A stretch of 22,830 nucleotides of DNA from Promethearchaeota archaeon (GTDB taxonomy: Archaea > Asgardarchaeota > Lokiarchaeia > Sigyniarchaeales > SOKP01). The stretch covers positions 1 to 22,830 of the forward strand of contig JBHLNT010000017.1 of NCBI GenBank assembly GCA_048941265.1. The letters run 5' to 3'. Both the position numbers and the translations under genes were made by a program. Under the pieces are notes generated by a model, which had not been told where the DNA came from, did not search any database, and was given only the letters and a program-made list of their open reading frames with translations. Positions 668 to 21,500 of the stretch are shown piece after piece (the stretch's first letter is position 1; every line of letters begins with the position of its first letter).

Positions 668-1000
668 ATGAGTTTAGATTGGATTTCTTATTTGAGCTTG
701 ATTTGTTCAATTATAAGTATCATTTTCTTCGTTTATAGTTTAATCTTGGTTAAAAATGTTAAGGAGTTATTCCCTAGCACGATTATTATTAAGAAATGGT
801 TTATAATCCAAACGCCAATCGTCTTATTTCTATTAGGTTATATATTTAATATAATGTTATTATTGCTCGAAAAAACAGAACTTATCATTTTTATGGTTGC
901 CATCGTTTATATCTTTGGAGGTTTATTTGTAGCACTCGTTATTCGTTTAGTTTTTAAAACTTATAAAACAATTCTTTTAGAATCCTCATTTAATAAATAA
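668..1000 (+). CDS. Small integral membrane protein (about 3 TM helices), unknown function
   Basis: 110 aa ORF with three hydrophobic stretches; 13 bp upstream of the next + strand gene, so probably co-transcribed. Confidence 0.75.
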   Translation: MSLDWISYLSLICSIISIIFFVYSLILVKNVKELFPSTIIIKKWFIIQTPIVLFLLGYIFNIMLLLLEKTELIIFMVAIVYIFGGLFVALVIRLVFKTYKTILLESSFNK

Positions 1001-2011: not shown

Positions 2012-4810
2012 CTATTTTAACTCGGTATTGAGTTTAAAAGTAGCTATTACATTAGCTCCAATTTCAATTTTGACGACGTTTTCATTAATATCGTGAATTT
2101 CAGCGTTAATTTCATTTTTAGGTGGTTCTTCCAGTAAGTTTACTAATTCACCATTTTTTATCGCAATTCCTTTATAGAATATCAAATTTGCTTTTTGAGA
2201 ATTCGATGCTAAGTTATACAACCTTACAATGATAGAGTTATCTTCTTCGGATTTCTTTAAAGCGCTTAATAAAACGTTTTTATTGTCAACCTCTAAAAAG
2301 CTCATGCTTTCAGGTAAATAAGGCTCAAATTCTTTAGGAGGTACATTCTTAAATATCTGAAAAATAGAAGAAGGCGATAAAAGAAGTTTATTATTTTGTC
2401 TAATGACAATTTTAAGACTATCTGGTATGATTGTCATAAGAGGATTATTAAATTCTTTGCCTATTTTAGGAAATTCAGCAACTAAGAAATCTTTTTTATG
2501 ATTCTGTATACAAAGTGATAAATCAAATTCATATTTTCCAAGACATTGAGCTTTAGGGGTATATAGTGGAGGGCCAGCTATTGCGCTTCTCATACCCGTC
2601 CTTGTCGAAAGATCTCCACGTGAAAGCCATCCAACACATCTTAATAAAGTAATGGCAAGCTTAATTGCTCCATTTTCATCTTTAATAGCCTCATACTCTG
2701 GCAATCCTTTATTAAATATAGCAAAACAAGTTTTATTATCCTGAGCACACACAAAATCCTTCTGATGATTTGTAGGGAGTGCCTTTTGAGCCCATCCCCT
2801 ACTATTAGGTAATTCTATATTTCTTGGAATAACATAAAAATGACCATCCGCAAATACTTTTTCACTTTTTACTTTAGATGAAAAGATAGCCCTGATTCTA
2901 TGATCTTGGCTTTGGTTATCAATCTTTATTTTAAAATGTATATGATTAATTTCTTTATATAGGGTAGTATAAACGCTAATTTTGTTTGGGATCAAAATTT
3001 CTTCTCGTTTTGTTCTGTCTTTCGCTAACGAGATTGGTAAGTTTAATATCATACTAAGCTTCAATGTTTTTTGAGAGGGACCCGCTATTTTCAAACTCGT
3101 TTTTAGTTGGGTTGCATCTTTTAAAATATATTTTTTGTCCATTGCACCCTTTTTAGGACCTGAAAAGTCGTATTCATCACCCCAGTCTCCTACATCTTCG
3201 AATTCTAATATATTTTCATATAAAATTTCACTTTTCTTATCTAATAAATCAAGTTGACCATCATTATTAATGGAAACTTTAAAATATTTGTTCTCGATAC
3301 TCTTTTTGTTTAGATTAAGGTCATTTTTAGGTTTAGGACTTTCATCAGGATTCGTATACAATACATAATATACTTTATATCCACATGCCGGAACTTTGGC
3401 TATAAAAGTAATTCTATATGAAGCATTTGGTTCAATCCAAAACCTTGGTTTCTCTTTTATTTTAAAAATTTGATAGTTAATATTGTTACCCTCATAATCG
3501 ATAATTGTTAGTTCGCTTTGAATTTCATTAGGATCTTTATTCGCAAGGACACTTATTTCAAAATATGAAATATCTTTCCTCTCCCATGGTAATGGATTGT
3601 AAATTATTATCGGGATTTTTTCATCATCTGTTTGAAACTTAATTAAATCAGAGAGATAAATGGAGGAATTTTTTGTAATTTCGTTTGCAATTTGTTCGGA
3701 CCACTGAAATCGTGTTTTCATTTCTTCATGGACCTCATCGATGCTACATCCGCATATCGAGTCATGAGGATGATTTTTTAGTAGCCATTTGAGCCCGGTC
3801 CATAGATAAGCCTTCGGATAACTGAACTTATTATACTTATCAAGTACCCAAGTAATAGTAGAGAGGGGTTCTGCATACTTTTCATATAAATATTCGATTT
3901 TTGTATTTTCTTGTTTTATCCATATTCTCGCAGAAAATACACCCGAAAGGAGAGGATGATATTTTCCTCCTCTGAGTTCTCCCTCATAACTTTTTAATGT
4001 AGGATTTGCTGATGAAATCAGATTGACATAATTTTCAAAGTCATTTATCTCCATGAAACTATCGGGATTTGCTTCATTCCATTGTTTAATTATTATCGGA
4101 ACTTCGGGTTGTGCAAATAAATGATCCGAACCGTTATTTAGCAAGACAATATCCGTTGCAGTATACTTTTCTAATCTTCCCACTGCTTTTTTAATTTTTT
4201 TGAGTGCAGCAAGATATTTCCCATTGGTAATAGTGATATTAAGGTTTGCCGCTGAGGAATATCCGTAAATTAAATGGATTGTTAAAATTGATGCGCTGTT
4301 TCTAGGTGCGTTCCATATAAACTCCATATTTAAGTTGTTTTCCTCAAATTCATTGCCAAACCCTCTCATAAATAACATAGAGGGAATCTCACATCCTTGC
4401 AATATTTGGGGTAGCTGTGCGATATGTCCAAAAGGATCCGGGATATATCCCGCTTTCATAACTTTGCCAAATTTCCTCCCGATTATATGCCCTAACATTA
4501 AATTTCGAATAATAGATTCTCCACTTACTAAAAATTCATCGGGTAATACATACATAGGACCAATAGAAAGTCGATCTTCTTTTACGAATTTTTCAATCAT
4601 TTCTTTTTTTTCTGGTCTTACTTCCAGATAATCTTCTAATGGTATAACTTGACCGTCTATTGTGAAATTTTTGAAATTGAGATCGTTCTTAAGGATATCT
4701 AATAACTTATCCATCATAATTACAAGATAAGCTCTAAACTCGTTGAATGTCATGTACCATTCGCGATCCCAGTGAGTTGTTGGAACTATAATTATCTTAT
4801 TCGCTTTCAT
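2012..4810 (-). CDS. Glycoside hydrolase family 38 alpha-mannosidase (MngB/Ams1-like, probably cytoplasmic)
   Basis: 932 aa; THWDREWY, DGQ, GPMYVLPDEFLVSGES, DPFGH (nucleophile), HDSICG, TLLRCVGWLSRGDL..R and C-terminal LSALKKSE...IIVRLYN motifs; no signal peptide. Confidence 0.95.
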   Translation of the reverse strand: MKANKIIIVPTTHWDREWYMTFNEFRAYLVIMMDKLLDILKNDLNFKNFTIDGQVIPLEDYLEVRPEKKEMIEKFVKEDRLSIGPMYVLPDEFLVSGESIIRNLMLGHIIGRKFGKVMKAGYIPDPFGHIAQLPQILQGCEIPSMLFMRGFGNEFEENNLNMEFIWNAPRNSASILTIHLIYGYSSAANLNITITNGKYLAALKKIKKAVGRLEKYTATDIVLLNNGSDHLFAQPEVPIIIKQWNEANPDSFMEINDFENYVNLISSANPTLKSYEGELRGGKYHPLLSGVFSARIWIKQENTKIEYLYEKYAEPLSTITWVLDKYNKFSYPKAYLWTGLKWLLKNHPHDSICGCSIDEVHEEMKTRFQWSEQIANEITKNSSIYLSDLIKFQTDDEKIPIIIYNPLPWERKDISYFEISVLANKDPNEIQSELTIIDYEGNNINYQIFKIKEKPRFWIEPNASYRITFIAKVPACGYKVYYVLYTNPDESPKPKNDLNLNKKSIENKYFKVSINNDGQLDLLDKKSEILYENILEFEDVGDWGDEYDFSGPKKGAMDKKYILKDATQLKTSLKIAGPSQKTLKLSMILNLPISLAKDRTKREEILIPNKISVYTTLYKEINHIHFKIKIDNQSQDHRIRAIFSSKVKSEKVFADGHFYVIPRNIELPNSRGWAQKALPTNHQKDFVCAQDNKTCFAIFNKGLPEYEAIKDENGAIKLAITLLRCVGWLSRGDLSTRTGMRSAIAGPPLYTPKAQCLGKYEFDLSLCIQNHKKDFLVAEFPKIGKEFNNPLMTIIPDSLKIVIRQNNKLLLSPSSIFQIFKNVPPKEFEPYLPESMSFLEVDNKNVLLSALKKSEEDNSIIVRLYNLASNSQKANLIFYKGIAIKNGELVNLLEEPPKNEINAEIHDINENVVKIEIGANVIATFKLNTELK

Positions 4811-4913: not shown

Positions 4914-5801
4914 TTAAATAATGGGCGTTGATAACACATTTGAAATCTCTTCCCAATAGATTTTTATATCCCACTTTTCATTTTTCTTTAATTTTAGAGA
5001 AAAATTTTTAAAGATTTCTTTAATTTCGAATGATTCAAAATAGTTAATTTTGGGAGCAATTACTGCAATCATGAATTGTCTTTCTCCCCCTCTTGAGGTT
5101 TTATCTCGATATGAATCAAAGAGAATATACCCATATTTTTTTATGTTTTCGATATTTAACAAGAGTCCCTCTGCTTCAGTTATATCTTCATTTCCATAAA
5201 TTGAAACGGTAGCTTGAAATAATTGAGTTCCTATATCTCTAATCGGGATTGGTAAATATTCTTCTTTTGGATAATAATCCTTTAGTTCGGGGCCTATTCG
5301 ATCATCCCATATTACAATCAATAAATGTACGAGGTTCTTTTCTTCCTCGGAAATAGATGCCTTGCTTTCTACATTTAATGATAAGAGCAATTCTTCAACT
5401 TTTTGATTAACAGATTTGTTTTTTTTATTTCGAGCAATTTTACCAGATACAATAGCAATTAAATCTTCTTCATTAAAGGGTTTAGTAATATAATCGTCTA
5501 CACCCAACATTTTTCCAAACCGAATATCTTCGGGTGATGATCGTGCTGAAAGAAATATAAATGGTATTCTATTCCATCGCAAATCTTCAAAAATTGTCTT
5601 GAAAAAATCATAACCGTTCATTTTTGGCATCATAATATCACTAATTATTACTTCTGGAGGTTTTCTAAGTTCATTAAGGATATTGATTGCTTTTTCTCCA
5701 TTTTCAGCAGTAATTGCCTCAAATCCATTAGCTTCTAAAATTAATTTAATACTAAACAAAATGTCGGCATTATCTTCAACAACAAGAATTAGAGGCTTCA
5801 A
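4914..5801 (-). CDS. Response regulator: REC domain fused to a uDENN/longin-like output domain
   Basis: TTG start. REC residues are intact (ED9-10, D55 in SDIMMP, S85, K107 in TKPF). C-terminal domain from about aa 158 contains LLIVIWDDRIGPELKDYYP and YILFDSYRDKTSRGGERQFMIAVI. The REC call is secure; the output-domain call is inference. Confidence 0.9.
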   Translation of the reverse strand: MKPLILVVEDNADILFSIKLILEANGFEAITAENGEKAINILNELRKPPEVIISDIMMPKMNGYDFFKTIFEDLRWNRIPFIFLSARSSPEDIRFGKMLGVDDYITKPFNEEDLIAIVSGKIARNKKNKSVNQKVEELLLSLNVESKASISEEEKNLVHLLIVIWDDRIGPELKDYYPKEEYLPIPIRDIGTQLFQATVSIYGNEDITEAEGLLLNIENIKKYGYILFDSYRDKTSRGGERQFMIAVIAPKINYFESFEIKEIFKNFSLKLKKNEKWDIKIYWEEISNVLSTPII

Positions 5802-5872: not shown

Positions 5873-8767
5873 TTATCCTTCAATTCTAGGGAGAAATACA
5901 TAAAAATTTGATCCCTTTCTAAACTCGCTCTCTACAAATATTTCTCCATTATGAAGTTGCGTTAATTCTCTCGCAATAGATAATCCTAAACCAGTTCCAG
6001 AGATCTCTTTTACTTGCTCAGATCTAAAAAATCGTTCAAATAAATGAGGAATATCTTTTTCGCTAATTCCTATTCCATAATCCTTAAATTGAAAAAGAAC
6101 TCCCCTTATTCCATTAGGATTATATTTCCCTTTATAATTATTAATAGCACTAATCTCAATCTTAGAATCTACTTCAGAATATTTAATCGCATTATCAATG
6201 AGTATCCGAAAAATTTGGTCAATCCGTTTTGGATCACCAAACAACTGAATGTTTTCATTTATTAGTATTTCAAAGATGATCCCTTTTTCTTTACCCTTTT
6301 GCTCCATTAGAGTTAAAATCTCATTTACAATCTCTAAAGGTGAATATTCCACCATGTCAATATCTAATCGGTGTTCATCAATTCTTGAAACCATAAGAAT
6401 ATCTTCGGCTAATTTATGAAGTAAAAAGGTATTTCTACTAATACCATCCATTAAACGTTGCTCCAATTCTGGAGTGATATTTTCCTTATGGTTTTTTAAA
6501 TAATCTAATGACATTAATATAACAGTAATGGGTGTTCTTAATTCATGTGATACAGTAGAAATTAAATGTTCTAATCTCTTCTCTGCTAGAATGCGTTCTG
6601 TAATGTCCATCCCATAAATATTAATATAATTAACGCCCTCAACTGGTGTAATAACAAAGGAATAAAATTTATTCTTAATTTCCTTCTCTATAGTTTTTAA
6701 TTTTTTATTTGATAGTACTTCCATAATGTCATCTTTTAATAAGATTGGAAGTGGGCTCCCTTTACTGATATTAAAGAGATCTTCTCCGATTTTGTTACAA
6801 TAAATTATAGTCTCATTATTTACCCTTAATACAGGCATGGGATTTTCAGAAGGAAATTTAGCTAAATCTGCAATTTTCTCCTCAATCTTCTTTCGCTCAG
6901 TAATATCACGGCAGATTGATTGAAAATAAATATTTCCTGATAATTCAATTACTTTAGCCGATACATAAACGTCCTTAATCTCTCCACTCTTAGTTCGAAA
7001 TTTCGTCTCAAAGTCATCTCTTCCCTCTTTTAGAATTGTTTCTATATGCTTTTTAGTCTCTTCAGGAGCCTCTTGAGCATCATATTCATTGATTTGAAGT
7101 CTCGCAAACTCTTCGTGGGTGTATCCTAATAATTTACACATTGGATCGTTGAATTCAACCGCTCTTCTTGATAGGGGATCCAATATCATAATCCCATCAG
7201 GGGATTGTTCAAATGTTGTTCGATAACGCAATTCGGCTTCCCTGATCCTCCTTTCAGCTTCTCTCTGTTCGGTGATGTCGATAAATGTTGCAAAATCGGC
7301 AATTCTTCCAAGATATTGAATAGCTTTTGATCTGATTTCAATCCATTTAATGTCATCTGATTTTGTTATAATTCTACATGTATAATTAGATAATAAATCC
7401 TTATAACCTTCCATTTTTTTTTTATATTCTTCAATAACAACCGGTAAATCATCTGGATGAATTTTCTTCGAAAATTCCATTTGAGACCACTCGCTAATCT
7501 CCTCCTTAGAATAACCCGTTATTTCAGACAGGGCCTTATTTGAATATTTAACCAATCCATCTTGCAAAATTACTATTCCCAGAGAAGATTGTTCTGCGAT
7601 CGTTCGAAATTTTTCTTCGCTTTCTGCTAAAGCGAGTTCAAATTCTTTTTTATCCGAAATATCTTGAATGTTTTTAATAATTACTTTTTGACCCCCGATA
7701 TCTATTAATTCTGCGTTCATTAAGGCAAAAAAAGATTCACTATTTTTCCTTTTAAGTATAACTTCGAAATTATTCACTTTGCTAGTTTTAAATAAATTTT
7801 CTAATAATCTTTTACGTTCTTTTGGATCATCATAAATCATACTCCGGTTTATGTTTTTTAATTCTTCAAGAGAATAACCAATTATTTCTTGAAATTTTTT
7901 ATTAATTGATATCATATTACCTTGCATATCTGCGATGCCTATTCCTACTGGTGATGCTTCAAAAAGATTAAAATATTTTTCCTCAGATTTTTTCAATTTC
8001 CTAAAAAGTAAATTATAAGGATTTTCAAGACCGATTACGATAATGGCTTTATATAAGAAAAAAAATGCTATGATTTTAAAAATATGCCCTAATAAGTTCG
8101 AGAATCCATAGACGCTAACATATAAGGTAAACACAAATTCGCCAATAATTGTAGTTATAAGTGAGCCTATTATAAATATATATATTTTTTTATTCAATTC
8201 ACTACGAAATTTACGCATTACTAGGATTGTAATTATAAGAATGAAAATAATGATGTATTCACTGATAATCTTAAATGGGGTTAAACCTGATCCTTCAATA
8301 TAACAAACAGGGAAAAATCCTGCAAATATACTGTAAATTAGTATAAATGTAATAAGCGTATAACCAATAAGTAAATAATTTATCTTAACTTCTTTATTAA
8401 ATACTAACGAAGCATATAGGAATGAAATTGCTTGGAGGTATCGTGCCGCAATCCACAATGAAGTAGGGAGATTGGAATCATACCCAATAAAGATGTTCAT
8501 GCCTGTATAAGCTAATGTGTGGATAAGATCAATAAAGCCCACATATAATAGAGAAATTCCAACCACTAAAAAAAAGGAATTATCTATATTCTCTCGGGAG
8601 TTCCAACAAATTACAAATATTCCCTCTGCGACAATAATACTAAATAATTCCGCTATCGTATGAAAAAGAAGAAAGCTGTAAAAACTGGTTAAATATGTGC
8701 CAACTAGGATTAAAGAAAAAATTATTAGCTCAATGTTTTCTTGTTTCTTTTTAGATTTACTAGACAT
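5873..8767 (-). CDS. Membrane sensor histidine kinase: MASE3 - 3 PAS/PAC - short PAS - HisKA - HATPase
   Basis: MASE3-type motifs LLFHTIAELFSIIV, DLIHTLAY.GMNIF and WIAARYLQA. PAS repeats start at SEEKYFNLFE, SEEKFRTIAE, AELRYRTTFE and FPSENPMPVLRV. H-box SHELRTP, N-box LIDNAIKYS, DYGIGI, LFERFFR, GTGLGL. Confidence 0.95.
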   Translation of the reverse strand: MSSKSKKKQENIELIIFSLILVGTYLTSFYSFLLFHTIAELFSIIVAEGIFVICWNSRENIDNSFFLVVGISLLYVGFIDLIHTLAYTGMNIFIGYDSNLPTSLWIAARYLQAISFLYASLVFNKEVKINYLLIGYTLITFILIYSIFAGFFPVCYIEGSGLTPFKIISEYIIIFILIITILVMRKFRSELNKKIYIFIIGSLITTIIGEFVFTLYVSVYGFSNLLGHIFKIIAFFFLYKAIIVIGLENPYNLLFRKLKKSEEKYFNLFEASPVGIGIADMQGNMISINKKFQEIIGYSLEELKNINRSMIYDDPKERKRLLENLFKTSKVNNFEVILKRKNSESFFALMNAELIDIGGQKVIIKNIQDISDKKEFELALAESEEKFRTIAEQSSLGIVILQDGLVKYSNKALSEITGYSKEEISEWSQMEFSKKIHPDDLPVVIEEYKKKMEGYKDLLSNYTCRIITKSDDIKWIEIRSKAIQYLGRIADFATFIDITEQREAERRIREAELRYRTTFEQSPDGIMILDPLSRRAVEFNDPMCKLLGYTHEEFARLQINEYDAQEAPEETKKHIETILKEGRDDFETKFRTKSGEIKDVYVSAKVIELSGNIYFQSICRDITERKKIEEKIADLAKFPSENPMPVLRVNNETIIYCNKIGEDLFNISKGSPLPILLKDDIMEVLSNKKLKTIEKEIKNKFYSFVITPVEGVNYINIYGMDITERILAEKRLEHLISTVSHELRTPITVILMSLDYLKNHKENITPELEQRLMDGISRNTFLLHKLAEDILMVSRIDEHRLDIDMVEYSPLEIVNEILTLMEQKGKEKGIIFEILINENIQLFGDPKRIDQIFRILIDNAIKYSEVDSKIEISAINNYKGKYNPNGIRGVLFQFKDYGIGISEKDIPHLFERFFRSEQVKEISGTGLGLSIARELTQLHNGEIFVESEFRKGSNFYVFLPRIEG

Positions 8768-8979: not shown

Positions 8980-9528
8980 ATGACTGATCCAACTGAAATT
9001 AAGAAACCAACTAAGATTTTGATAATGGGATTAGATAATAGCGGAAAAACGTCTATTTTAATGAGTTTAAGGGAGAATACTAATCTATTATCTTATTTTT
9101 CGTTAAGACCCACTAAAGGTCTATCTGTAGAAGAATTTAATGGTGATACGCAAGGAATGGTCTGTTGGGATCTCGGTGGTCAAGTCCAATACCGAAATAA
9201 ATATATGAAAGATTTTAGTAGATATGCCAAGGAAACTGAAAAAATTATTTTTGTGATTGATATTCAGGATACAAATAGATATAATATAGCATTGGAATAT
9301 CTGGAGGAACTAATTCATGTCCTTAAAGACTCTAAGAATTTTATAGAAATCTCTCTGTTTTTACATAAATTTGATCCAAATTTGATTAAAAGAGACGATT
9401 TCAAAGAATTATATCAAAAAATCAATACAGAATTGGTTAATAAAATTAGAGAAATCATCCCAAATAATTTCAATTATGATATTTTTAAAACAACCATTTA
9501 TACGGTTTTTGAAAAAAGTCTATTTTAA
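8980..9528 (+). CDS. Small Ras-superfamily GTPase, Rag(Gtr)/Arf-like
   Basis: G1 GLDNSGKTS, G2 RPT45, G3 WDLGGQ, G4 HKFD (His variant as in Rag GTPases), G5 TTIY (Rag-type TSI[WY]). Confidence 0.92.
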   Translation: MTDPTEIKKPTKILIMGLDNSGKTSILMSLRENTNLLSYFSLRPTKGLSVEEFNGDTQGMVCWDLGGQVQYRNKYMKDFSRYAKETEKIIFVIDIQDTNRYNIALEYLEELIHVLKDSKNFIEISLFLHKFDPNLIKRDDFKELYQKINTELVNKIREIIPNNFNYDIFKTTIYTVFEKSLF

Positions 9529-9564: not shown

Positions 9565-10002
9565 ATGATAAAAGATATTCTTTGCATTTACATCCTTGAT
9601 GAAAAGGGAACTCCAATTTTTATTCGTGAGAATTATGTTCAGGGTTCGGGAGATGCGAATCATGCTTTATTATCTGATTTTGTTAGTGCTTTACAATCTC
9701 TTGCCCAAGAATTCGGGGAAGATGAGACAAGAGTTATAGAATTAAGTGATTCTAAAATCTTATCAACCAGAGATAAAATTACTAATTATTCATTTATTAT
9801 AAAATCTGAGATTAAATCAAAAAATAAAAAAATATTTGGAATTCTAAATCAAATCAAAAATATCTTTATTGAAAAATTTACTGGACATCTTGCGTCAAGT
9901 GTGGAAGTAAAAAAGAAAATTATGTTATCCTTCGAAGAAGCAATCAATGAAATAATTGCTGAACCTACCGACAGTCTAAAAGGATTTTTAAAATCGATTT
10001 GA
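9565..10002 (+). CDS. Longin-like domain protein, probable GTPase partner
   Basis: 36 bp after the GTPase with AGGAG RBS. IYILDEKGTPIF hairpin, LLSDFVSALQSLAQEFG helix and L..IK..F..KF C-terminal helix fit a longin topology. Confidence 0.7.
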   Translation: MIKDILCIYILDEKGTPIFIRENYVQGSGDANHALLSDFVSALQSLAQEFGEDETRVIELSDSKILSTRDKITNYSFIIKSEIKSKNKKIFGILNQIKNIFIEKFTGHLASSVEVKKKIMLSFEEAINEIIAEPTDSLKGFLKSI

Positions 10003-10017
10003 CGCTAATAAACTTTT

Positions 10018-10395
10018 TTAATGAGAAATAGCTAAGAACTTTTCAAAATCCGAAAAAGCTGAAATATTACCTTTCCATTTATTTAGAAAATCTGTGGAGT
10101 AGTATGCAAAAAATTTTTCTGATATCTCATTTAGTTCTTGTTTAACATTTTTTTCTTTAGCATTTACGGATGATTTACCAACAAAAATGATGTCTTGTTT
10201 CTTTATAAAGGTGAACTTTTTTGTTATGAATTGAAAAGAACTCAATCCACCTTTAGATAAGATATCGGCATATGCATTTAACGCTATTGTGATGGCACCG
10301 AATAAATTTTTATCAACTTCTTCATAAGATTGGTAGTGATATAGGACTATACCAGAATCCTTAAGAATCCAAAAATCAGTTATGTACTGCAGCAT
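10018..10395 (-). CDS. Longin-like domain protein (paralog of 1014..1430)
   Basis: DFWILKDSGIVLY, DKNLFGAITIALNAY, GLSSF, KEKNV and WKGNISAFSDF align by eye with 1014..1430. Confidence 0.7.
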   Translation of the reverse strand: MLQYITDFWILKDSGIVLYHYQSYEEVDKNLFGAITIALNAYADILSKGGLSSFQFITKKFTFIKKQDIIFVGKSSVNAKEKNVKQELNEISEKFFAYYSTDFLNKWKGNISAFSDFEKFLAISH

Positions 10396-10517: not shown

Positions 10518-11117
10518 TTATTTAACTTCGATTTTTTTACTCTCTTTCTCTTCGATTTCTTTTTTTGGCAAGTCCAGTTTTAAAACTCCCTTATCTAAAG
10601 TAGCATCGATTTTCTCTTCATTGACGTTTTCAGGTAATTTAAAGCTTCTATAATAACTTGAGCTACTGTATTCTTTTCTAACATAGCCTTCTTTGTTTTC
10701 TTCGTGTTCTTCTTTTCTTTCGCCTTTAATTTCTAATGTACCATCGTGAATGGTTATCTCTAAATCACCCTTTTCTAAACCAGGTAATTCAGCAGTCATT
10801 TGATAACCTTTATCATCTTCGGTAACATTTGCCAATGGAGTTCGGAAAAAGTCATCTTCATCGAATACTTTTAAGCTAAATGGCTCGAAATCCCAGAATC
10901 TAGAAGGTCTCCAGAACATATCTTCAAACCATCTAGTAACATCGCCAAAAAAGCGGTCCATATTTCTGAACATCGATAATGGATGATATCTCTGTCTAAC
11001 GCTTAATTCGGTGTCTCTGGTTTCTTCTTTTGGAGTTTCTTCAATTTTCATTTCTTCTTTAGCCTCTTCATGTTCTTGTTTAACTTCAATTTTTTTCTCA
11101 TCTTTTACATCCGACAT
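10518..11117 (-). CDS. hsp20: Small heat shock protein (Hsp20/alpha-crystallin family)
   Basis: AELPGL.K.DL.I, LEIKGERK, YYRSFKLPENV, IDATLDKGVLKLDLPK and C-terminal IEVK motif. Start is more likely ATG 11117 (GAGGTG RBS 6 nt upstream) than the track's GTG at 11126. Confidence 0.96.
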   Translation of the reverse strand: MSDVKDEKKIEVKQEHEEAKEEMKIEETPKEETRDTELSVRQRYHPLSMFRNMDRFFGDVTRWFEDMFWRPSRFWDFEPFSLKVFDEDDFFRTPLANVTEDDKGYQMTAELPGLEKGDLEITIHDGTLEIKGERKEEHEENKEGYVRKEYSSSSYYRSFKLPENVNEEKIDATLDKGVLKLDLPKKEIEEKESKKIEVK

Positions 11118-11232
11118 ATCATACACCTCTTAATTTGTAATTTTAATTATATTTGTGATCGTCAACTTACTCTTTACAGATATCTAATTTACTAGAATAA
11201 GTTTACCTATTTAAAGATATCGTTTTTGAAGG

Positions 11233-11363: not shown

Positions 11364-12452
11364 ATGTTGATAGAAATGGAAATCATAGAAAAAAATACGC
11401 CTAAAGGGAGGGCAGAACAATATTTAGATTTAGCAGGAGTAATAATTGTTGCTCTAAACAAAAAAGGAATTATAACATTGATGAATAAAAAAGGTTATGA
11501 AATTTTAGAATATGAGAAGGGGGAACTTATTGGACAAAATTGGTTTGAAACGTGTGTACCTCCTCATTTAAGGGACGAGATTTTTGGGGTGTTTAAAAGT
11601 CTTATGAGGGGAGAAGTTGAACCAGTGGAATTTTATGAAAATCCGGTATTAACTAAAGACAATATAGTAAAATTAATTGCTTGGCATAATACATTATTAT
11701 ATGACGATGAGGGTAATATTGTGGGCACCTTAAGCGCAGGAGAAGATAGTACTAAATTAGATAGAATGAAATCAGAATTACTTGAAAGAATCGCACATGA
11801 ATTAAAAACTCCACTTGTTTCCATTAAGGGTTCAACTGAAATTATATCTAGTTTTTATAATGAGGAATTAACTCCAAAAGTAATCTCACTAATAGAAATT
11901 ATTAATCGTAATACAAATCGTCTTGAGAATTTAATTAATAATATTCTAGATGCATCTCGACTTGAAGTAGGAGTTTTGGCAATTAACAAATCCGGAAATA
12001 ATCTGGCATCCTTAATCAGGGAATCTGTCAAAAATCTGCAAAATTTAGCAGAAATGAGGGAACATAAAATTGAGTTTAAAATACACGATGAATTAATAGC
12101 TAAATTTGATTATCAAAGAATTTTCAGTGTAATGAATGATTTAATAATTAATGCCATTAAATATACACCCCCGAAAGGAAAAATATTGATATCTTCTGAG
12201 ATTTTAAGTGAACATTTTTTAATTTCAGTCAAGGATAGTGGTATTGGATTTACAGAAGAAGAAAAACCTCAAATCTTCAAAAGATTTGGCAAAATTGAGC
12301 GATATGGGAAAGGATGGGATGTTGGAATTGAGGGTTCTGGACTTGGACTATATATTTCTAAAAAAATTATAGAATTGCATGGCGGAAAAATTTGGGTTGT
12401 ATCTGATGGCGAAAATAAAGGTTCAACTTTTTTCTTTACATTACCCTATTAA
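11364..12452 (+). CDS. Cytoplasmic PAS-HisKA-HATPase histidine kinase
   Basis: PAS (YLDLAGVIIVALN..G.I..MN, ELIGQNWF, YENPVLTK, IAWHNTLL.D..G.I.GTLSAGED), AHELKTPL, LIINAIKYT, DSGIG, GSGLGL; no TM segment. Confidence 0.95.
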   Translation: MLIEMEIIEKNTPKGRAEQYLDLAGVIIVALNKKGIITLMNKKGYEILEYEKGELIGQNWFETCVPPHLRDEIFGVFKSLMRGEVEPVEFYENPVLTKDNIVKLIAWHNTLLYDDEGNIVGTLSAGEDSTKLDRMKSELLERIAHELKTPLVSIKGSTEIISSFYNEELTPKVISLIEIINRNTNRLENLINNILDASRLEVGVLAINKSGNNLASLIRESVKNLQNLAEMREHKIEFKIHDELIAKFDYQRIFSVMNDLIINAIKYTPPKGKILISSEILSEHFLISVKDSGIGFTEEEKPQIFKRFGKIERYGKGWDVGIEGSGLGLYISKKIIELHGGKIWVVSDGENKGSTFFFTLPY

Positions 12453-12477: not shown

Positions 12478-13431
12478 TTAGAAATTCTCTTTCCATTTTT
12501 TATATCTCTCTATAAATTCCTCAATGAATAAGTCTAAGAAGTTTGGAGACATTGCCGAGGAATGTGGGGTTCTTAATATATTAGGGCAATAGCGTAAGGG
12601 AGAATTTTTATCTAAAGGTTCTTCTTTAAATACATCTAAATATGCGCCTTTTATAACATTATTTTTAAGTGCATATGCTAGATCTTCCTCATTAATAGCA
12701 TTTCCCCTTCCAATATTATAAATATAGCAATGATTTGGTAGCAATTCTAATTTTCTTTTATCTATTATGTTATCTGTAGATTTATCTCTAGGTAATGCCA
12801 AGACAAGGTGATCTGTTTTTGGGAGAATGGAATCAAGATCGTCAATAGTAATTATTTTGTCTTTTTCATCAAAAAAATATGGCGGTTTCATTAAAACCCT
12901 TTTTACTCCAGTTATTTTTGCTCCAAATGGTTTAGCTAACTTAGCAATCCAATTCCCAATTTTGCCAAAACCTAGTATGACAAGATGAGATCCCCTTAAA
13001 GTATTACAATAAGGCTCGATTTCTTCCCGAGGCCATAGATATTTATCTTGAAATTGACCTGCGAAATTTAATCCTCTAATAAATCCAAGGATGGCGCCAA
13101 TTACGTTTTCAGCTATAATTTTACCGTGAAACGCTCCATACGAAACAATCATTCTTTCTGGCACGTCTATATTAAACCAATCTTTTCCTGCAGATGGTGT
13201 AGCGATCCATTTCAATTTCGGTGCCATCTCCAACCATTTTTGATTAAATACCCAGACTAAAGCAATGTCAGTATTAATAAGATTATCTTTAAAAGATTGG
13301 GAACTGTTATGTAATGAAACTGTACATTCTGGAAGAGATTCTTCAAGCTTTTTTTTATGGTTTTCAGAGGCGTTCCAAGCTTTAACTACAGGGTTGGTTA
13401 GCCATATACTAATATGCATAATAATATTCAT
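12478..13431 (-). CDS. D-2-hydroxyacid dehydrogenase family protein (NAD(P)-dependent)
   Basis: LKWI...SAG.D, GFGKIG Rossmann motif, NIGRG (Arg), LDVF.EEPL (Glu), TPHSS (His). Confidence 0.93.
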   Translation of the reverse strand: MNIIMHISIWLTNPVVKAWNASENHKKKLEESLPECTVSLHNSSQSFKDNLINTDIALVWVFNQKWLEMAPKLKWIATPSAGKDWFNIDVPERMIVSYGAFHGKIIAENVIGAILGFIRGLNFAGQFQDKYLWPREEIEPYCNTLRGSHLVILGFGKIGNWIAKLAKPFGAKITGVKRVLMKPPYFFDEKDKIITIDDLDSILPKTDHLVLALPRDKSTDNIIDKRKLELLPNHCYIYNIGRGNAINEEDLAYALKNNVIKGAYLDVFKEEPLDKNSPLRYCPNILRTPHSSAMSPNFLDLFIEEFIERYKKWKENF

Positions 13432-15992: not shown

Positions 15993-17834
15993 ATGCCAAA
16001 AGGATATATGGGTAAGGTATTATGGGTTGATCTTTCAGATGGATCGTTCAAAGAAGAAGAATTATCTGGAGATACATATCGTCAATATCTAGGAGGATAT
16101 GGATTAGCAACAAAAATAATTTATGAAAATATGCCAGCCAAAGCAGATCCATTAGGTCCAGATGCGATTTTTGGTTTTTTCCCCGGCTTATTAACTGGAA
16201 CTGTAGCACCCTTAAGTGGTCGTTTTATGGTGGCAGGTAAATCGACTTTAACGGGAGGCTGGGGAGATTCTAATTGTGGAGGATATTTTGGCCCTGAAAT
16301 TAAGAAATGTGGGTACGATGCAATTCTAATCAAGGGTAAATCTGATAGTCCAAAGTATATCACGATTATCGATGATCAAAAACAGATATTAGATGCTTCA
16401 GATCTCTGGGGATTAGATTGCGTTCAGACAGAAGAAAAATTGGAAGAAAAACATGGCAAAATACAAGTCGCGAGCATTGGTCAATCAGGAGAAAAACTTT
16501 CATTAATATCGGGAATAGTAAACGATAAGGCAAGAATTGCAGGAAGATCTGGTTTTGGCGCGGTTATGGGATCCAAAAAGTTAAAAGCTATAGTACTCCG
16601 AGGAAGTAAAAAAATTGAGCTAGCAGATAAGGATGCAATACTTAACGCTACAAAAGAATATAATGAAGGTATAAAAGCGGCTTCTGCTGGAGCAATCCAA
16701 GCATGGAAGACTCTAGGGACTTCTTTTGGAAACGTAATAAGTGCTCAAATAGGTGATACTCCCATAAAAAATTGGGGCGGCACAGTAGCAGAAGATTTTC
16801 CTATGGATAAAATAAATAAAATTTCAGGGGAAGCAATAACTAAATATAGAGAAAAACCATACGGTTGTTTTTCATGCCCCGTTCAATGTGGAGCTATAAT
16901 GAAAATACCTGAGATCGGTATAGAAGAAACTCATCGGCCAGAGTATGAGACATGTGCCTCTTTTGGGCATTTGTGTTTAAATGACGATATTATGTCATTA
17001 TTTATCGTAAATGACTTATGCAACAGAGCTGGAATTGATACTATTTCAACAGGAACCTCAGTTGCCTTTGCTATAGAGTGTTATGAAAATGGATTGATAA
17101 ACAAAGAAGATATTGATGGGCTTGAAATGACCTGGGGCAATTCCTCTGCTATCATTGAATTAACTAAAAAAATTATTAATCGAGAAGGAATTGGAGATAT
17201 TTTAGCAGATGGAACCAAAATAGCAGCTGAAAAGATTGGGAAAGGGAGTGAAAAATTTGCTATGCAAGCGGGCGGACAAGAACTTGGAATGCACTCACCT
17301 AAATATTATAAACATTTGGGTGCAACTTTCGCATTCGATCCTACTCCTGGGAGACATACTACTCCCTGTTTAGATATGCTTGCAGGAGGTCCATTTATGA
17401 AGCCTGATGGTCTATTTCAAGGTTTAGGATTGCCAAAAAAATTTAAAAGACCTGGGGAAGACAGAAGTGAGGCTGAAAAATTAACTACTGCAATATGGCA
17501 ATCTTTCTGTGCTGTTGGATTATGTGAATTTGTCTTTTTCTTCCAAAAATATCCTCTATTAGAAGTAATCAAAGGCTCCACTGGTTGGGATATAAACATG
17601 GACGAATTAATTAAAATAGGTTTGAGAATTCAAGCTCTTAGGCAGGCATTTTCATTGCGAGAAGGAGTAGAGATTATTAATAATAAATTACCAGAAAGAG
17701 CCGTAGGAGTGGATTATTTAGAAGACTACAAGGATTATTGCGAAAAAATGGGGTGGAATCCTGAGAACGGATATCCCTTAAAAGAAACATTGATAGACCT
17801 AAACTTAGATTTTGTTATAAAAGATTTATACTAA
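15993..17834 (+). CDS. aor: Aldehyde:ferredoxin oxidoreductase family (tungstopterin, 4Fe-4S)
   Basis: GYMGKVLWVDLS, YLGG.GL, KS.LTGGWGDSN.GG.FGPE.K..GYD, AGR.GFGAVMGSKKLKAI, CFSCPVQC, PEYET, GIDTIS, GLCEF. Confidence 0.96.
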   Translation: MPKGYMGKVLWVDLSDGSFKEEELSGDTYRQYLGGYGLATKIIYENMPAKADPLGPDAIFGFFPGLLTGTVAPLSGRFMVAGKSTLTGGWGDSNCGGYFGPEIKKCGYDAILIKGKSDSPKYITIIDDQKQILDASDLWGLDCVQTEEKLEEKHGKIQVASIGQSGEKLSLISGIVNDKARIAGRSGFGAVMGSKKLKAIVLRGSKKIELADKDAILNATKEYNEGIKAASAGAIQAWKTLGTSFGNVISAQIGDTPIKNWGGTVAEDFPMDKINKISGEAITKYREKPYGCFSCPVQCGAIMKIPEIGIEETHRPEYETCASFGHLCLNDDIMSLFIVNDLCNRAGIDTISTGTSVAFAIECYENGLINKEDIDGLEMTWGNSSAIIELTKKIINREGIGDILADGTKIAAEKIGKGSEKFAMQAGGQELGMHSPKYYKHLGATFAFDPTPGRHTTPCLDMLAGGPFMKPDGLFQGLGLPKKFKRPGEDRSEAEKLTTAIWQSFCAVGLCEFVFFFQKYPLLEVIKGSTGWDINMDELIKIGLRIQALRQAFSLREGVEIINNKLPERAVGVDYLEDYKDYCEKMGWNPENGYPLKETLIDLNLDFVIKDLY

Positions 17835-18574: not shown

Positions 18575-21500
18575 ATGTTAAATAATGTCGAACAAAAACG
18601 ATGTTCTATCCTAATTCTAATTATTATGCTAGCCAGCATAACATCTACAGTGATTTTCAACCAACCTAACTATAATCCGCTTAGGTTTATAAGTAAAGAG
18701 AATTATAATGACGATTTTCCTGAAGTTTCAGATCAAAGAGTCGTTCATCCGAATTCTATAGTCGACGCTAATGGAGATAAAATCGATGATAAAATATCGG
18801 ATTTAATTACTAGAAAAGTCTTAATTGACCCTGCTTTACGTGAAGATGGCAAGAAAGTTAAGGTTTGTATATGTGTCGATAAAAAACCCGATGATGCCCT
18901 AATCGATAAATTAGGCAGTTATGGGGCAGAAATTTTAACAGTTCACGATGCCTTGATCTATGCGGTTTACGCAATTGTGCCTCTTGATAAGGTTAGAACT
19001 ATAGCTGCTGATAAGGAAGTAACCTTTATTCAAAAAGAATATGAAAGCACTGCTCATCTGGATACGAGCACCATAAACATGGGGATAAGAGGCTCTCCGT
19101 ATGTATGGAATGCGGTTCCAACTATAAAAGGGAATCCCAACTATGCTATTGCAATTTTAGATACAGGTATTGATTCAACCCATCCAGATATGTCAAATTT
19201 TCTCTATTTTCAAGACTTCTCGGGGAGTGGATATCCACCTGGGAGTACGGGGGTTGATTACGGCCATCACGGAACTCATTGCGCGTCCATCGCGGCAGGT
19301 ACAGGCATCGCTGATACAAATCCTCAAACAGTTTATGAGACAACTTCTAATCAATTTCCTGTTCAAGGAAATATTTACCTTTATTGGTTCGAGATTAAAG
19401 ACAATCCTAATAATCCGAATACAATTGTAAGGTTAGATTGGGATAACGCTGGTGGAGATGCTTATTTTGGGATATTAGATTCAAATTTGAATTGGATTAC
19501 ATCCAGTGGTCCGTATTTAACTACTCCAATAACTTATAACTTAGGAAACCTCGCACCTGGTGCTTATTTAGTTTATGTTGAAGCAGCTGATTCGGGTACT
19601 GTTGGAAGAGACTATACATGTACAATCGAGCACGAAAGTGCGTATACAATAGCAGAGGATTCTGTTGGTACACCAGTATTTACAGGGGTAGCTCCACAAA
19701 GCAAATTAATCAGCTTGAAAGTATTGGATGATACTGGTCATGGAAATGATCAAATGCTTCTTAATGCATTCGATTGGATTCAAAATAATGGTCAAAATCC
19801 TGCTTATAACATTACAACGGTTTCAATGTCATTAGGTTTTAGCGGATATATTCCGGGAATAGATACTGCAGTTAATCAGCTTGTCGATGCAGGATTTATT
19901 TGCGTTACATCTGCTGGAAACAGTGGAACGGTCAATCCAATTGGATCTCCAGGTACAGCACAAAAGTGTATAACAGTGGGAGCCGTTAATGATGCTTTTG
20001 AAGTAGTCTATTACAGTTCAAATGGAGATAATACCTATTATAAACCTGACGTTATTGCTCCAGGCGGGACTGTAGCTTATTACGGTACGGGTTCAATTGG
20101 AAATATGATCGTTGCTGCCGATTCTAATTATGAAGAAATGGATACTTCTATGGGTGATCAAAGAGCTAATGATTATAGAGGTATGCAAGGAACATCTATG
20201 TCGTGCCCACATGTTGCTGGGCTAGCACAGCTGGTGATTGATGCAATAATTCAAACTGAGGGGAGTTGGTCTTGGTCGCAGGCTAATGCTTTAAGGGTGA
20301 AACAAATAATATGTATGGGTACTTGGGAAGTCAATGCGGGAGAATCATTTGATGGAGATAAAGATGGAATTCCACAAAGCCCATCATTAAATAGAATAGG
20401 AAGAGATAACGTAGAGGGTTATGGGATGGTACGGGCAGATGCAGTAATTCAATCTATTACTCATCCTACCACTGGACCACTTAATAATAAAGAATATTAC
20501 CTCGATCGTCGAGCAAGTTCACATGCGAGAGATCCAAAAGTAGTTCTTTTCTCTCTTGATGCAGAGTTAGGGAGTAGCTATGATTTTACTCTTGATGTTC
20601 CTTCTACTGGAGATTTCGATCTAATTATTTATGATAATGACTATGATCCGAATACAGGACGTCCTATAGTTTTTGATTCCAGTATAAATGCGGGTTTAGG
20701 AGTTGATGAAACCTTGGAGTTTATTCCTACTGAAGATGGTTTATATTATTGGTCCATTCGTGCTGTTCAAGGATATGGTACTTGTCAAGTCACTTTAGAA
20801 AGATTTACTTCAGCTCCTAATGCTCCATCTAATCCATCACCCCAGGATGGTGCTATTGACGTTCCTACTAATATTGAGTTAAGTGTGGATGTTACTGATC
20901 CAGATGGAGATATAATGGATATCTATTTCTATGATGCATCGGATGACAACTTAATCGGCACGGACTTAGATGTTCCAGATGGAGGTACTGCATCAGTCAT
21001 GTGGCAAGATCTTTCTGAAAATACTAATTATGAGTGGTATGCCATTGCTGATGATGGAATTTACACATCTCAATCTGCGATATGGACATTTACTACAATT
21101 GGTACTGGGCTGCCACAAATAGATTTAACAGATAGAGGCAACTCATACTCAGGATTTACACCAATATCCGTAGTTAGTGGTTCAACTAGTTTTAATGTTT
21201 GGTGTGAGGTAGAAAATATAGGAAATTCAGATGCTGGAAGTTTTGAAATTACCTACTATGTCTCTAGTGATTATGAAATTTCAACTTCAGATTATATTAT
21301 AGGCATTGATTCTGTTTCCGGGATTCCCTCAGCTTCTTCTGCTGCTTCAAGTTGGACTGGCACTTTTCCAAGTGGAGTACCTAATGGAATGTATTACATC
21401 GGATGGATTATAGATAGTAGTGATCAGGTGTCCGAAACTGATGAGACTAATAATGTGGGGATTGCGAGTGGTATGGTAGATGTAGGTTCAAATTATGGAT

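Follow-up and report, generated by a model that had tools for sequence, protein, structure and literature searches.

A receiver-longin response regulator of an Asgard archaeon as a candidate arginine-finger GTPase-activating protein for a neighboring Rag-like GTPase

Genes and features at the locus

The stretch of DNA analyzed here (hereafter the window) comprises 22,830 nucleotides, positions 1 to 22,830 of contig JBHLNT010000017.1 (assembly GCA_048941265.1), from a Promethearchaeota archaeon of the Asgardarchaeota. At positions 4914-5801 its reverse strand carries an open reading frame (ORF) in which a response-regulator receiver (REC) domain is joined through a long helix to a predicted longin domain, close to genes for a histidine kinase and a small GTPase. 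An earlier note on this DNA had recognized in the output domain an arginine-finger motif resembling those of FLCN and SMCR8, and had proposed a phosphorylation-gated GTPase-activating protein (GAP) domain. The features concerned are the following (aa, amino acids or residue positions; E, expect value):

4914..5801, reverse strand: response regulator gene, 295 aa, TTG start, encoding a receiver, a long helix and a GP/Arg longin domain
5448..5789, reverse strand: receiver domain, aa 5-118 (PF00072, E 1.6e-24)
5637-5639, reverse strand: codon of the phospho-acceptor D55, from its residue position in the receiver
5379..5471, reverse strand: extended receiver α5, a single 31-residue helix, aa 111-141 (DSSP of the full-length model)
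4917..5339, reverse strand: longin (uDENN-type) output domain, aa 155-295, 141 residues (predicted fold and structural matches)
5289..5309, reverse strand: β1-β2 hairpin W165-D166-x3-G170-P171 (alignments and conservation)
5091..5093, reverse strand: R237, candidate arginine finger in the β4-β5 loop (codon AGA; aligned to SMCR8 R147)
5873..8767, reverse strand: sensor histidine kinase, MASE3-PAS(x3)-HisKA-HATPase (Pfam), 71 bases upstream of the regulator gene
6545-6547, reverse strand: H741 of the kinase H-box, intact (residue inspection)
8980..9528, forward strand: single-domain Rag/Arf-like small GTPase, 182 aa (Gtr1_RagA E 7.7e-21, Arf E 3.9e-21)

The ORF contains both peptides quoted in the earlier note (residues 160-171 and 225-248), with an arginine, encoded by AGA, at position 237. 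Judged from its sequence, the ORF is a two-component response regulator: the receiver fold retains all of its site residues, namely the acidic pair E9/D10, the phospho-acceptor D55 (invariant across 92 aligned proteins), S85 and K107, and a histidine kinase with an intact H-box is encoded next to it. This kinase is likely the cognate kinase of the regulator, and the GTPase, whose gene is divergent from that of the kinase, is a candidate substrate of the longin domain. The α5 extension is a candidate signaling or dimerization helix as far as the model indicates; in the full-length AlphaFold model (predicted TM-score, pTM, 0.54) the orientation of receiver and longin relative to each other is not fixed. 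The chain stops at residue 295, directly behind the longin, with no DENN domain after it and no cDENN subdomain of the Avl9 type, for which 295 aa leave no room.

Fold of the output domain

Searched on its own, the region of aa 155-295 matched no family in Pfam, and a single-sequence search of the PDB returned only chance matches to tryparedoxin. AlphaFold, run on a domain alignment of 51 rows, produced a model of this region with a predicted local distance difference test (pLDDT) of 90.3 and a pTM of 0.86, in which the β-β-α-β-β-β-α-α topology is that of a longin. In the full-length model R237 is located in the loop separating strands 222-232 and 240-249, which corresponds to the β4-β5 loop. 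A Foldseek search, which the earlier note had suggested as a check of the longin fold, bore this fold out: the six top PDB matches comprised GATOR1 chains, the dimeric Lokiarchaeota longin 8YQG, Lst4 and the complex of FLCN with FNIP2.

Comparison with VIA-align gave the highest score to 8YQG (Z 14.5, root-mean-square deviation [rmsd] 2.5, 129 aligned, 9% identity), followed by Lst4 (Z 13.3), the active FLCN complex 8DHB (Z 11.8, rmsd 3.2, 133 aligned; chain J, assigned to FLCN by residue range), C9orf72 (Z 11.5, rmsd 3.3, 134 aligned), the GATOR1 chains (Z 9-10.6) and SMCR8 (Z 10.0). In these structural searches the FLCN and GATOR1 chains were matched as residue ranges. The best match, 8YQG, is a roadblock-longin protein with a dimeric longin, so that a similar Loki longin homodimerizes in the crystal; a full-text literature search found no publication on it. 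The Atlas structure search retrieved clusters of PF11704 Folliculin, SMCR8 and C9orf72 at TM 0.74-0.78, as well as an Avl9-bearing cluster (39% of its members) at TM 0.72. The models thus support the assignment of the output domain to the longin fold of the FLCN/SMCR8/C9orf72/NPRL2 type.

Motif frequency and residue conservation

The earlier note had based the arginine finger on matching D, RG and downstream R residues. As a strict pattern, D-x3-R-G-x2-R is present in 7 of the 4247 genome ORFs, compared with 7.05 in shuffled sequences, which by itself is chance level. When an upstream aromatic-x4-GP is demanded as well, the strict pattern is confined to one genome ORF, 4914-5801 itself (0.1 in shuffles), and a looser two-part pattern is found in 11 (1.15 in shuffles, with a maximum of 3). 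We judge the feature to be real because of the fold and the conservation, and not because of the short motif.

Conservation was assessed in a close set of 100 proteins out of 396 candidates and in a distant set of 153 aligned domain rows from 151 representatives at 50% identity, where the denominators are the rows with a residue at the given position. Among the close homologs R237 is retained in 98/100, with variable residues on either side, and W165, G170, P171, F228 and D229 are each present in all 100. D233 is kept in 94/100; G238 is found in only 48/100, and position 241 is occupied by R in 54/100 and by K in 36/100. The distant set follows the same trend, with R237 in 112/141, W165 in 125/128, G170 in 124/130 and R241 in 41/149, and in its REC-fused rows the R237 column holds Arg in 55 of 77. 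Of the proposed motif, G238 accordingly does not hold up, and the match of the downstream R is largely incidental. In sequence terms, the signal of the family is R237 plus the W165-P171 hairpin; G238 and the second arginine, R241, do not belong to it.

Residue equivalence to eukaryotic longin GAPs

Profile searches were run against 177,635 PDB sequences. The profile of the domain matched C9orf72 alone (E 0.3), and profiles broadened with Arg-bearing paralogs from the same genome reached C9orf72 (E 0.018 and 0.0056), SMCR8 (E 0.13 and 0.052) and NPRL2 (E 0.97), the last over β1-β2 only. The alignments to C9orf72 and SMCR8 span the whole domain and agree with the structural comparison. In them the family arginine R237 falls on SMCR8 R147 (counted back from the alignment end), as the earlier note had predicted, and on an Asn in C9orf72. 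Its aromatic-x4-GP hairpin is likewise recovered: W165-D166 and G170-P171 align with W33-D34 and G38-P39 of C9orf72 at the same spacing, and W165 and G170-P171 with F63 and G68-P69 of SMCR8. The distance from F10 to P16 in FLCN also equals that from W165 to P171 (six residues). In these PDB sequence searches no profile reached FLCN or 8YQG, and a profile of ten F-x4-GP paralogs from the same genome, which is homologous to the REC-longin family (hhalign 93.9%), matched no PDB longin.

These positions are of known importance in the eukaryotic proteins. In SMCR8, R147 acts as the catalytic finger toward ARF1, and activity is almost lost in the C9orf72 mutant W33G/D34K (10.1101/2021.04.13.439632); GAP activity toward RagC needs FLCN F10, the loop of which determines specificity (PMC9473554); and the aromatic-GP hairpin is the loop that contacts the GTPase in eukaryotic longin GAPs (PMC12290439; 10.1101/2021.04.13.439632; PMC9473554). 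We considered W165-D166 as a mark unique to C9orf72. This was weakened by the aromatic residues at the same place in the catalytic subunits SMCR8 (F63) and FLCN (F10), and the C9orf72-like features are limited to the choice of Trp and to the Asp.

The same arginine might instead be a non-catalytic interface or phosphate contact, in a longin that binds the Rag-like GTPase as an effector, a scaffold or an exchange factor for guanine nucleotides (GEF). The gene linkage described below fits such a role equally well, most longin/roadblock proteins are GEFs or platforms (Tran et al. 2024, PMC10933270), Liu et al. (bioRxiv 10.1101/2020.10.19.343400) have suggested that an Asgard DENN-GTPase operon provides GEF activity, and the DENND1 GEFs and TRAPP stand at most 2 Z units from the GAPs. 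Nevertheless, the GP motif together with a β4-β5 arginine is typical of GAP longins and absent from the longins of adaptins, TRAPP and the DENN GEFs (Novak et al. 2025, PMC12290439), and Avl9-type proteins with the equivalent arginine have proved to be GAPs (bioRxiv 10.64898/2026.01.05.697756), so that we hold a non-catalytic or exchange role to be unlikely.

Linkage with a histidine kinase and a Rag-like GTPase

Gene neighborhoods were compared in 60 loci hand-picked from the profile matches plus the window, which together hold 64 family genes (53 Arg-bearing and 11 Arg-less); this sample is a part of the matches, leaving out the non-receiver loci L053-L055 and short 1.5-kb versions, and its counts include related genomes, which as kin are not independent. 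Among the 53 Arg-bearing genes, a kinase was located no more than 1.5 kb away in 42 cases, and a Rag-like GTPase no more than 5 kb away in 40. The Arg-less genes have a kinase nearby in 3/11 cases and a Rag-like GTPase in 1/11. As a background in the window's own genome, 69 of 3155 ORFs of at least 200 aa lie within 5 kb of a Rag-like GTPase, and among its 18 receiver genes a single one does so, namely 4914-5801. Two further statistics were set aside. The apparent joint loss of the arginine and the GTPase neighbor (40/53 vs 1/11) reduces to 3 independent pairs (sign test p = 1), and the mirror-tree correlation between longin and GTPase (rho 0.55, permutation maximum 0.31, 27 pairs) is expected from the shared descent of linked genes; neither is used as evidence.

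In the family to which the window belongs, the usual run consists of an ArsR-type regulator, the GTPase, the kinase and the receiver-longin gene on one strand. The window locus deviates in that its GTPase is inverted, and the ORF list contains no ArsR ORF beside it. All four cassette kinases scanned from family f1 (4/4) also carry MASE3. The window GTPase falls inside a clade with 100/100 support and 30 rows, 27 of which adjoin a REC-longin gene, and the neighboring GTPases as a whole split into three separately supported clades (27, 6 and 4 rows) from two families and in several orientations. This gene cluster likely points to a regulator-target pair.

The nearest solved relatives of the GTPase are 8YL2 and 8ZLA/9M28, the last of which is titled as a Loki Rag-like GTPase. 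The residues K23, T45, W63, D64, G67, Q68, H129, K130 and D132 are invariant in 27/27 cassette GTPases; they represent G1, the Thr of G2, a G3 containing Gln, and a His-Lys-x-Asp G4, which is of the Rag type. The GTPases of the main clade are single G domains of 178-199 aa with no C-terminal roadblock domain; because this domain is absent and Arf scores as high as Gtr1_RagA, we call the protein 8980-9528 Rag-like and not Rag. It was also observed that the cassette GTPases (that of the window and the orthologs at L071-L108) end about 8-10 residues past a conserved T-S/T-I-Y word, an early stop by which, presumably, the usual last helix would be missing besides the roadblock domain. At L071 (4317-11067) and similar loci, the run is often flanked by a PALP enzyme and a hexapeptide transferase on one side and by an Lrp/AsnC regulator on the other, the domains being identified by Pfam on L071 only and the gene sizes recurring at other loci; these flanking genes hint at an amino-acid context.

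Were the kinase, regulator and GTPase merely co-regulated, the longin could be a dimerization or small-ligand module with no role toward a GTPase. The persistence of Arg-less members, which keep an intact receiver, in places without a GTPase neighbor would fit this, as would the relatedness of the longin, PAS and GAF folds and the LOV/PAS domains that follow in our Foldseek search at E of about 0.005-0.02. We nonetheless consider it very improbable, given that the linkage extends to three separate GTPase clades, that some relatives are directly fused to a GTPase domain, and that the conserved residues are exactly those that contact GTPases in eukaryotes.

Distribution of the family and related longins

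The source records assign the close homologs to Loki-/Promethearchaeota, Hermod-, Hel- and Thorarchaeota; almost every one has a receiver. Searching 1.84 billion representatives with a profile yielded 349 matches at E ≤0.001, the best 150 of which were inspected. The full-length profile detected the family in 61 out of 251 genomes from the phylum, belonging to 4 of its 28 families, with 48/54 genomes in the window's own family and 9/16, 1/1 and 2/26 genomes in three others; in the genomes searched outside these four families it detected no REC-longin. The profile of the longin domain alone reached 68/251 genomes. The receiver-longin fusion is therefore, on these sequence searches, a lineage-restricted Asgard arrangement and neither universal nor ancestral. 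The closeness to a folliculin/SMCR8 ancestor that had been put forward in the earlier note is not borne out by this restricted occurrence, nor by the PDB sequence matches, among which C9orf72 comes closest and not FLCN or SMCR8.

In the genome of the window, GP-motif longins are encoded by no fewer than 14 ORFs, the majority with Arg in the loop corresponding to that of R237; small GTPases are encoded by 100 ORFs, 15 of them Rag-like. On another contig of this genome (G000:C211:15785-19914; also L003 from 1492 on and L002 from 1444 on), two tandem genes of 682 and 690 aa each encode a GP-longin, TPR and a longin. The first copy has no Arg and G-S in place of G-P, and the second has the Arg and a loop much like that of SMCR8, so that the two look like a non-catalytic/catalytic pair. 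The locus L050 (G186:C300, 3269-9954) holds an ArsR gene, a Rag-like GTPase, an Arg-less REC-longin, an opposite-strand CheB-CheR-PAS-HATPase gene and an Arg-bearing REC-longin.

Further Arg-less proteins include a REC-longin clade at seven loci (L036-L042) with the receiver intact and without Arg, kinase or GTPase neighbor, and a second group at two loci (L043-L044) in which the kinase is present; both are candidate pseudo-GAPs. The same longin is also joined to other inputs, i.e., PAS, DUF1638, RsbRD_N and hybrid kinases with REC, HATPase and TPR (P0091, P0092, P0111, P0121, P0140, P0216 and P0217). Other multidomain proteins have on a single chain an Arf-like GTPase, directly behind it an Arg-bearing longin, and PAS (and GAF/HATPase) domains (G000:C271:23466-26837; L054 2300-5668; L055 5214-7745; P0220), and these may possibly be self-contained GTPase-GAP sensors.

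Other genes of the window

The remaining genes of the window are listed below; no tRNA or Rfam element was found in it. The three small longin-like genes hold the same places in the locus L034.

668-1000, forward strand: hydrophobic ORF, 110 aa
1014-1430 (forward), 9565-10002 (forward) and 10018-10395 (reverse strand): small roadblock/longin-like genes that lack GP/Arg motifs (weak matches to Robl_LC7 and Fuz_longin_1)
2012-4810, reverse strand: GH38 alpha-mannosidase (Pfam)
10518-11126, reverse strand: Hsp20 (Pfam)
11364-12452, forward strand: second PAS histidine kinase (Pfam)
12478-13431, reverse strand: 2-hydroxyacid dehydrogenase (Pfam)
15993-17834, forward strand: aldehyde ferredoxin oxidoreductase (Pfam)
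18575-22828, forward strand: large subtilase (Peptidase_S8) that also contains a CARDB domain and repeated modules of extracellular type; the ORF is open at the 3' end

Proposed mechanism

The interpretation that we favor is that the protein 4914-5801 is probably a phosphorylation-gated longin GAP for the linked Rag-like GTPase 8980-9528. The MASE3/PAS kinase would sense a signal and phosphorylate D55, as the intact sites and the gene order suggest, whereupon the receiver may alter its dimer state or shift the long α5 helix and thereby expose or assemble the longin platform. By homology, the W165-P171 hairpin would then dock onto the switch regions of the neighboring Rag-like GTPase and R237 would be inserted into its active site, speeding GTP hydrolysis as SMCR8 R147 does for ARF1 and FLCN R164 for RagC. 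The working unit would most likely be a homodimer in which the arginine comes from one copy and the holding surface from the second, one chain bearing both the W-D/GP hairpin and the Arg. Such a homodimer offers the simplest pocket, because the chain has no DENN domain and the conserved run has no fixed second longin. More tentatively, and with clearly less confidence than in the GAP function itself, the cassette could be a complete minimal pathway from a membrane kinase to a Rag-like GTPase, in which receiver phosphorylation assembles a symmetric arginine-finger GAP homodimer.

The domain might also be a GAP that requires a second, Arg-less longin, as SMCR8 requires C9orf72, or that acts on another Arf- or Rab-like substrate. 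All solved longin GAPs are heterodimers (PMC12290439; 10.1101/2021.04.13.439632; PMC9473554), Arg-less paralogs twice stand beside an Arg-bearing copy (L050 and the G000:C211 pair), three small longin/roadblock-like genes lie within the window, and transcription of the window GTPase runs away from the genes of the kinase and regulator; at two loci, moreover, the neighbors are Rab-like only. That no second longin is fixed in the ArsR-GTPase-kinase-regulator run, that 40 of the linked GTPases are Rag-like, and that W-D/GP and Arg occur together on a single chain lead us to regard a required partner or another substrate as distinctly unlikely.

Several observations weigh against a GAP acting on the linked GTPase. 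The E-values to the eukaryotic proteins are weak (0.006-1), with chance matches among them. The top structural Z values are bunched together, and non-GAP longins come close behind in VIA-align (DENND1A Z 10.4, TRAPP 10.2 and VAMP7 9.9); because GEF and SNARE longins come within 2 Z units of the GAP-complex longins, the fold alone does not settle the function. The Arg is missing at the R237 column in 22 of the 77 REC-fused representatives, so the domain can persist without it. In the DNA examined, 13 of the 53 Arg-bearing genes have no Rag-like neighbor (some of them on short contigs), and the two loci with a Rab-like neighbor only are both Arg-bearing. With some 100 small GTPases and more than a dozen GP longins encoded in the genome, cross-talk is possible. 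Finally, the longin GAPs of eukaryotes are heterodimers in longin-DENN proteins, or Avl9-type monomers that need their cDENN (10.1101/2021.04.13.439632; bioRxiv 10.64898/2026.01.05.697756), and the regulator has neither a DENN domain nor a known partner. On present evidence, the longin would thus behave as a longin GAP yet stand outside the eukaryotic longin-DENN GAP families, of which it is no member because it has no DENN and no known partner.

Relation to known systems and significance

Among eukaryotic systems, the C9orf72:SMCR8 (CSW) Arf GAP shares with the regulator the R237/R147 equivalence, the equivalents of the hairpin and longin Z scores of 10-11.5. It is, however, a longin-DENN heterodimer joined by WDR41, with the Arg and the W-D on different subunits (10.1101/2021.04.13.439632), whereas 4914-5801 combines both on one chain, lacks DENN and has a receiver domain as input. 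FLCN:FNIP2, a RagC/D GAP, and NPRL2:NPRL3 of GATOR1, a RagA/B GAP, resemble it in the longin fold, the F10-P16 spacing and the Rag-like character of the linked GTPase, but these are heterodimers acting on roadblock-bearing Rag heterodimers (PMC9473554), and the GTPase of the archaeon is made up of a single G domain of 182 aa. The monomeric DENN GAPs Avl9, DENND6 and DENND11 likewise place the catalytic Arg between longin β4 and β5 and hold the GTPase via a cDENN subdomain (bioRxiv 10.64898/2026.01.05.697756), which 4914-5801 does not have.

Among Asgard archaea, many fusions of NPRL2-like longins with two-component domains have been described, which, like 4914-5801, join a GAP-type longin to a two-component domain and led to the proposal that two-component systems take part in growth regulation (Liu et al., bioRxiv 10.1101/2020.10.19.343400); the accessible text of that study mentions neither a receiver fusion nor an arginine, and it names no partner kinase and no target GTPase. 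Asgard longins with the same arrangement of GP at β1-β2 and Arg finger have been reported from one heimdallarchaeial reference and 14 other models, with no genomic link to a GTPase in the text available, and GAP activity on Rag or ArfR GTPases was raised as a possibility for them in a study whose main text does not contain the term "response regulator" (0 occurrences; Novak et al. 2025, PMC12290439). The pairing of GTPases and regulators has been found hard to read from the genome layout in MK-D1 (Tran et al. 2024, PMC10933270), and the accessible parts of Vargova et al. (10.1101/2024.02.28.582541) and PMC13037920 contain nothing on the REC-longin family. We found neither a receiver-longin/kinase/Rag-like cassette nor a measured GAP activity of an Asgard longin in full-text literature searches, most subscription papers and the supplements of Liu et al. 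and Novak et al. being outside their scope. The Asgard GP/Arg longins (Novak et al. 2025) and the longin-two-component fusions (Liu et al. 2020) are thus already in print, and what is added here is the conserved kinase-GTPase cassette and the presence of W-D/GP and Arg on one chain. The surprise is moderate, because the ingredients had been published.

Asgard archaea possess dozens of small GTPases and longins. The cassette offers a small, soluble and genomically matched pair, consisting of a 141-aa domain and a 182-aa GTPase, with a built-in point-mutant control. In it, a bacterial-style phosphorylation switch is joined to the kind of domain that turns off human Rag and Arf GTPases. If the homodimer is real, with W-D/GP and Arg on one chain, it would show in a living system the condition that preceded duplication, the later split of the holding and finger tasks having given C9orf72/SMCR8, FNIP/FLCN and NPRL3/NPRL2, and the Arg-bearing/Arg-less Asgard pairs (G000:C211 and L050) would be independent repeats of that split. 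If the GAP activity is true, this would be the first demonstration in a prokaryote of a longin GAP with an arginine finger, as far as the literature was searched, and the chemistry of the FLCN/GATOR1 type would predate eukaryotes. Two-component phosphorylation would then feed a Rag-type switch in organisms without a TOR kinase, the absence of which was reported by Liu et al. (bioRxiv 10.1101/2020.10.19.343400).

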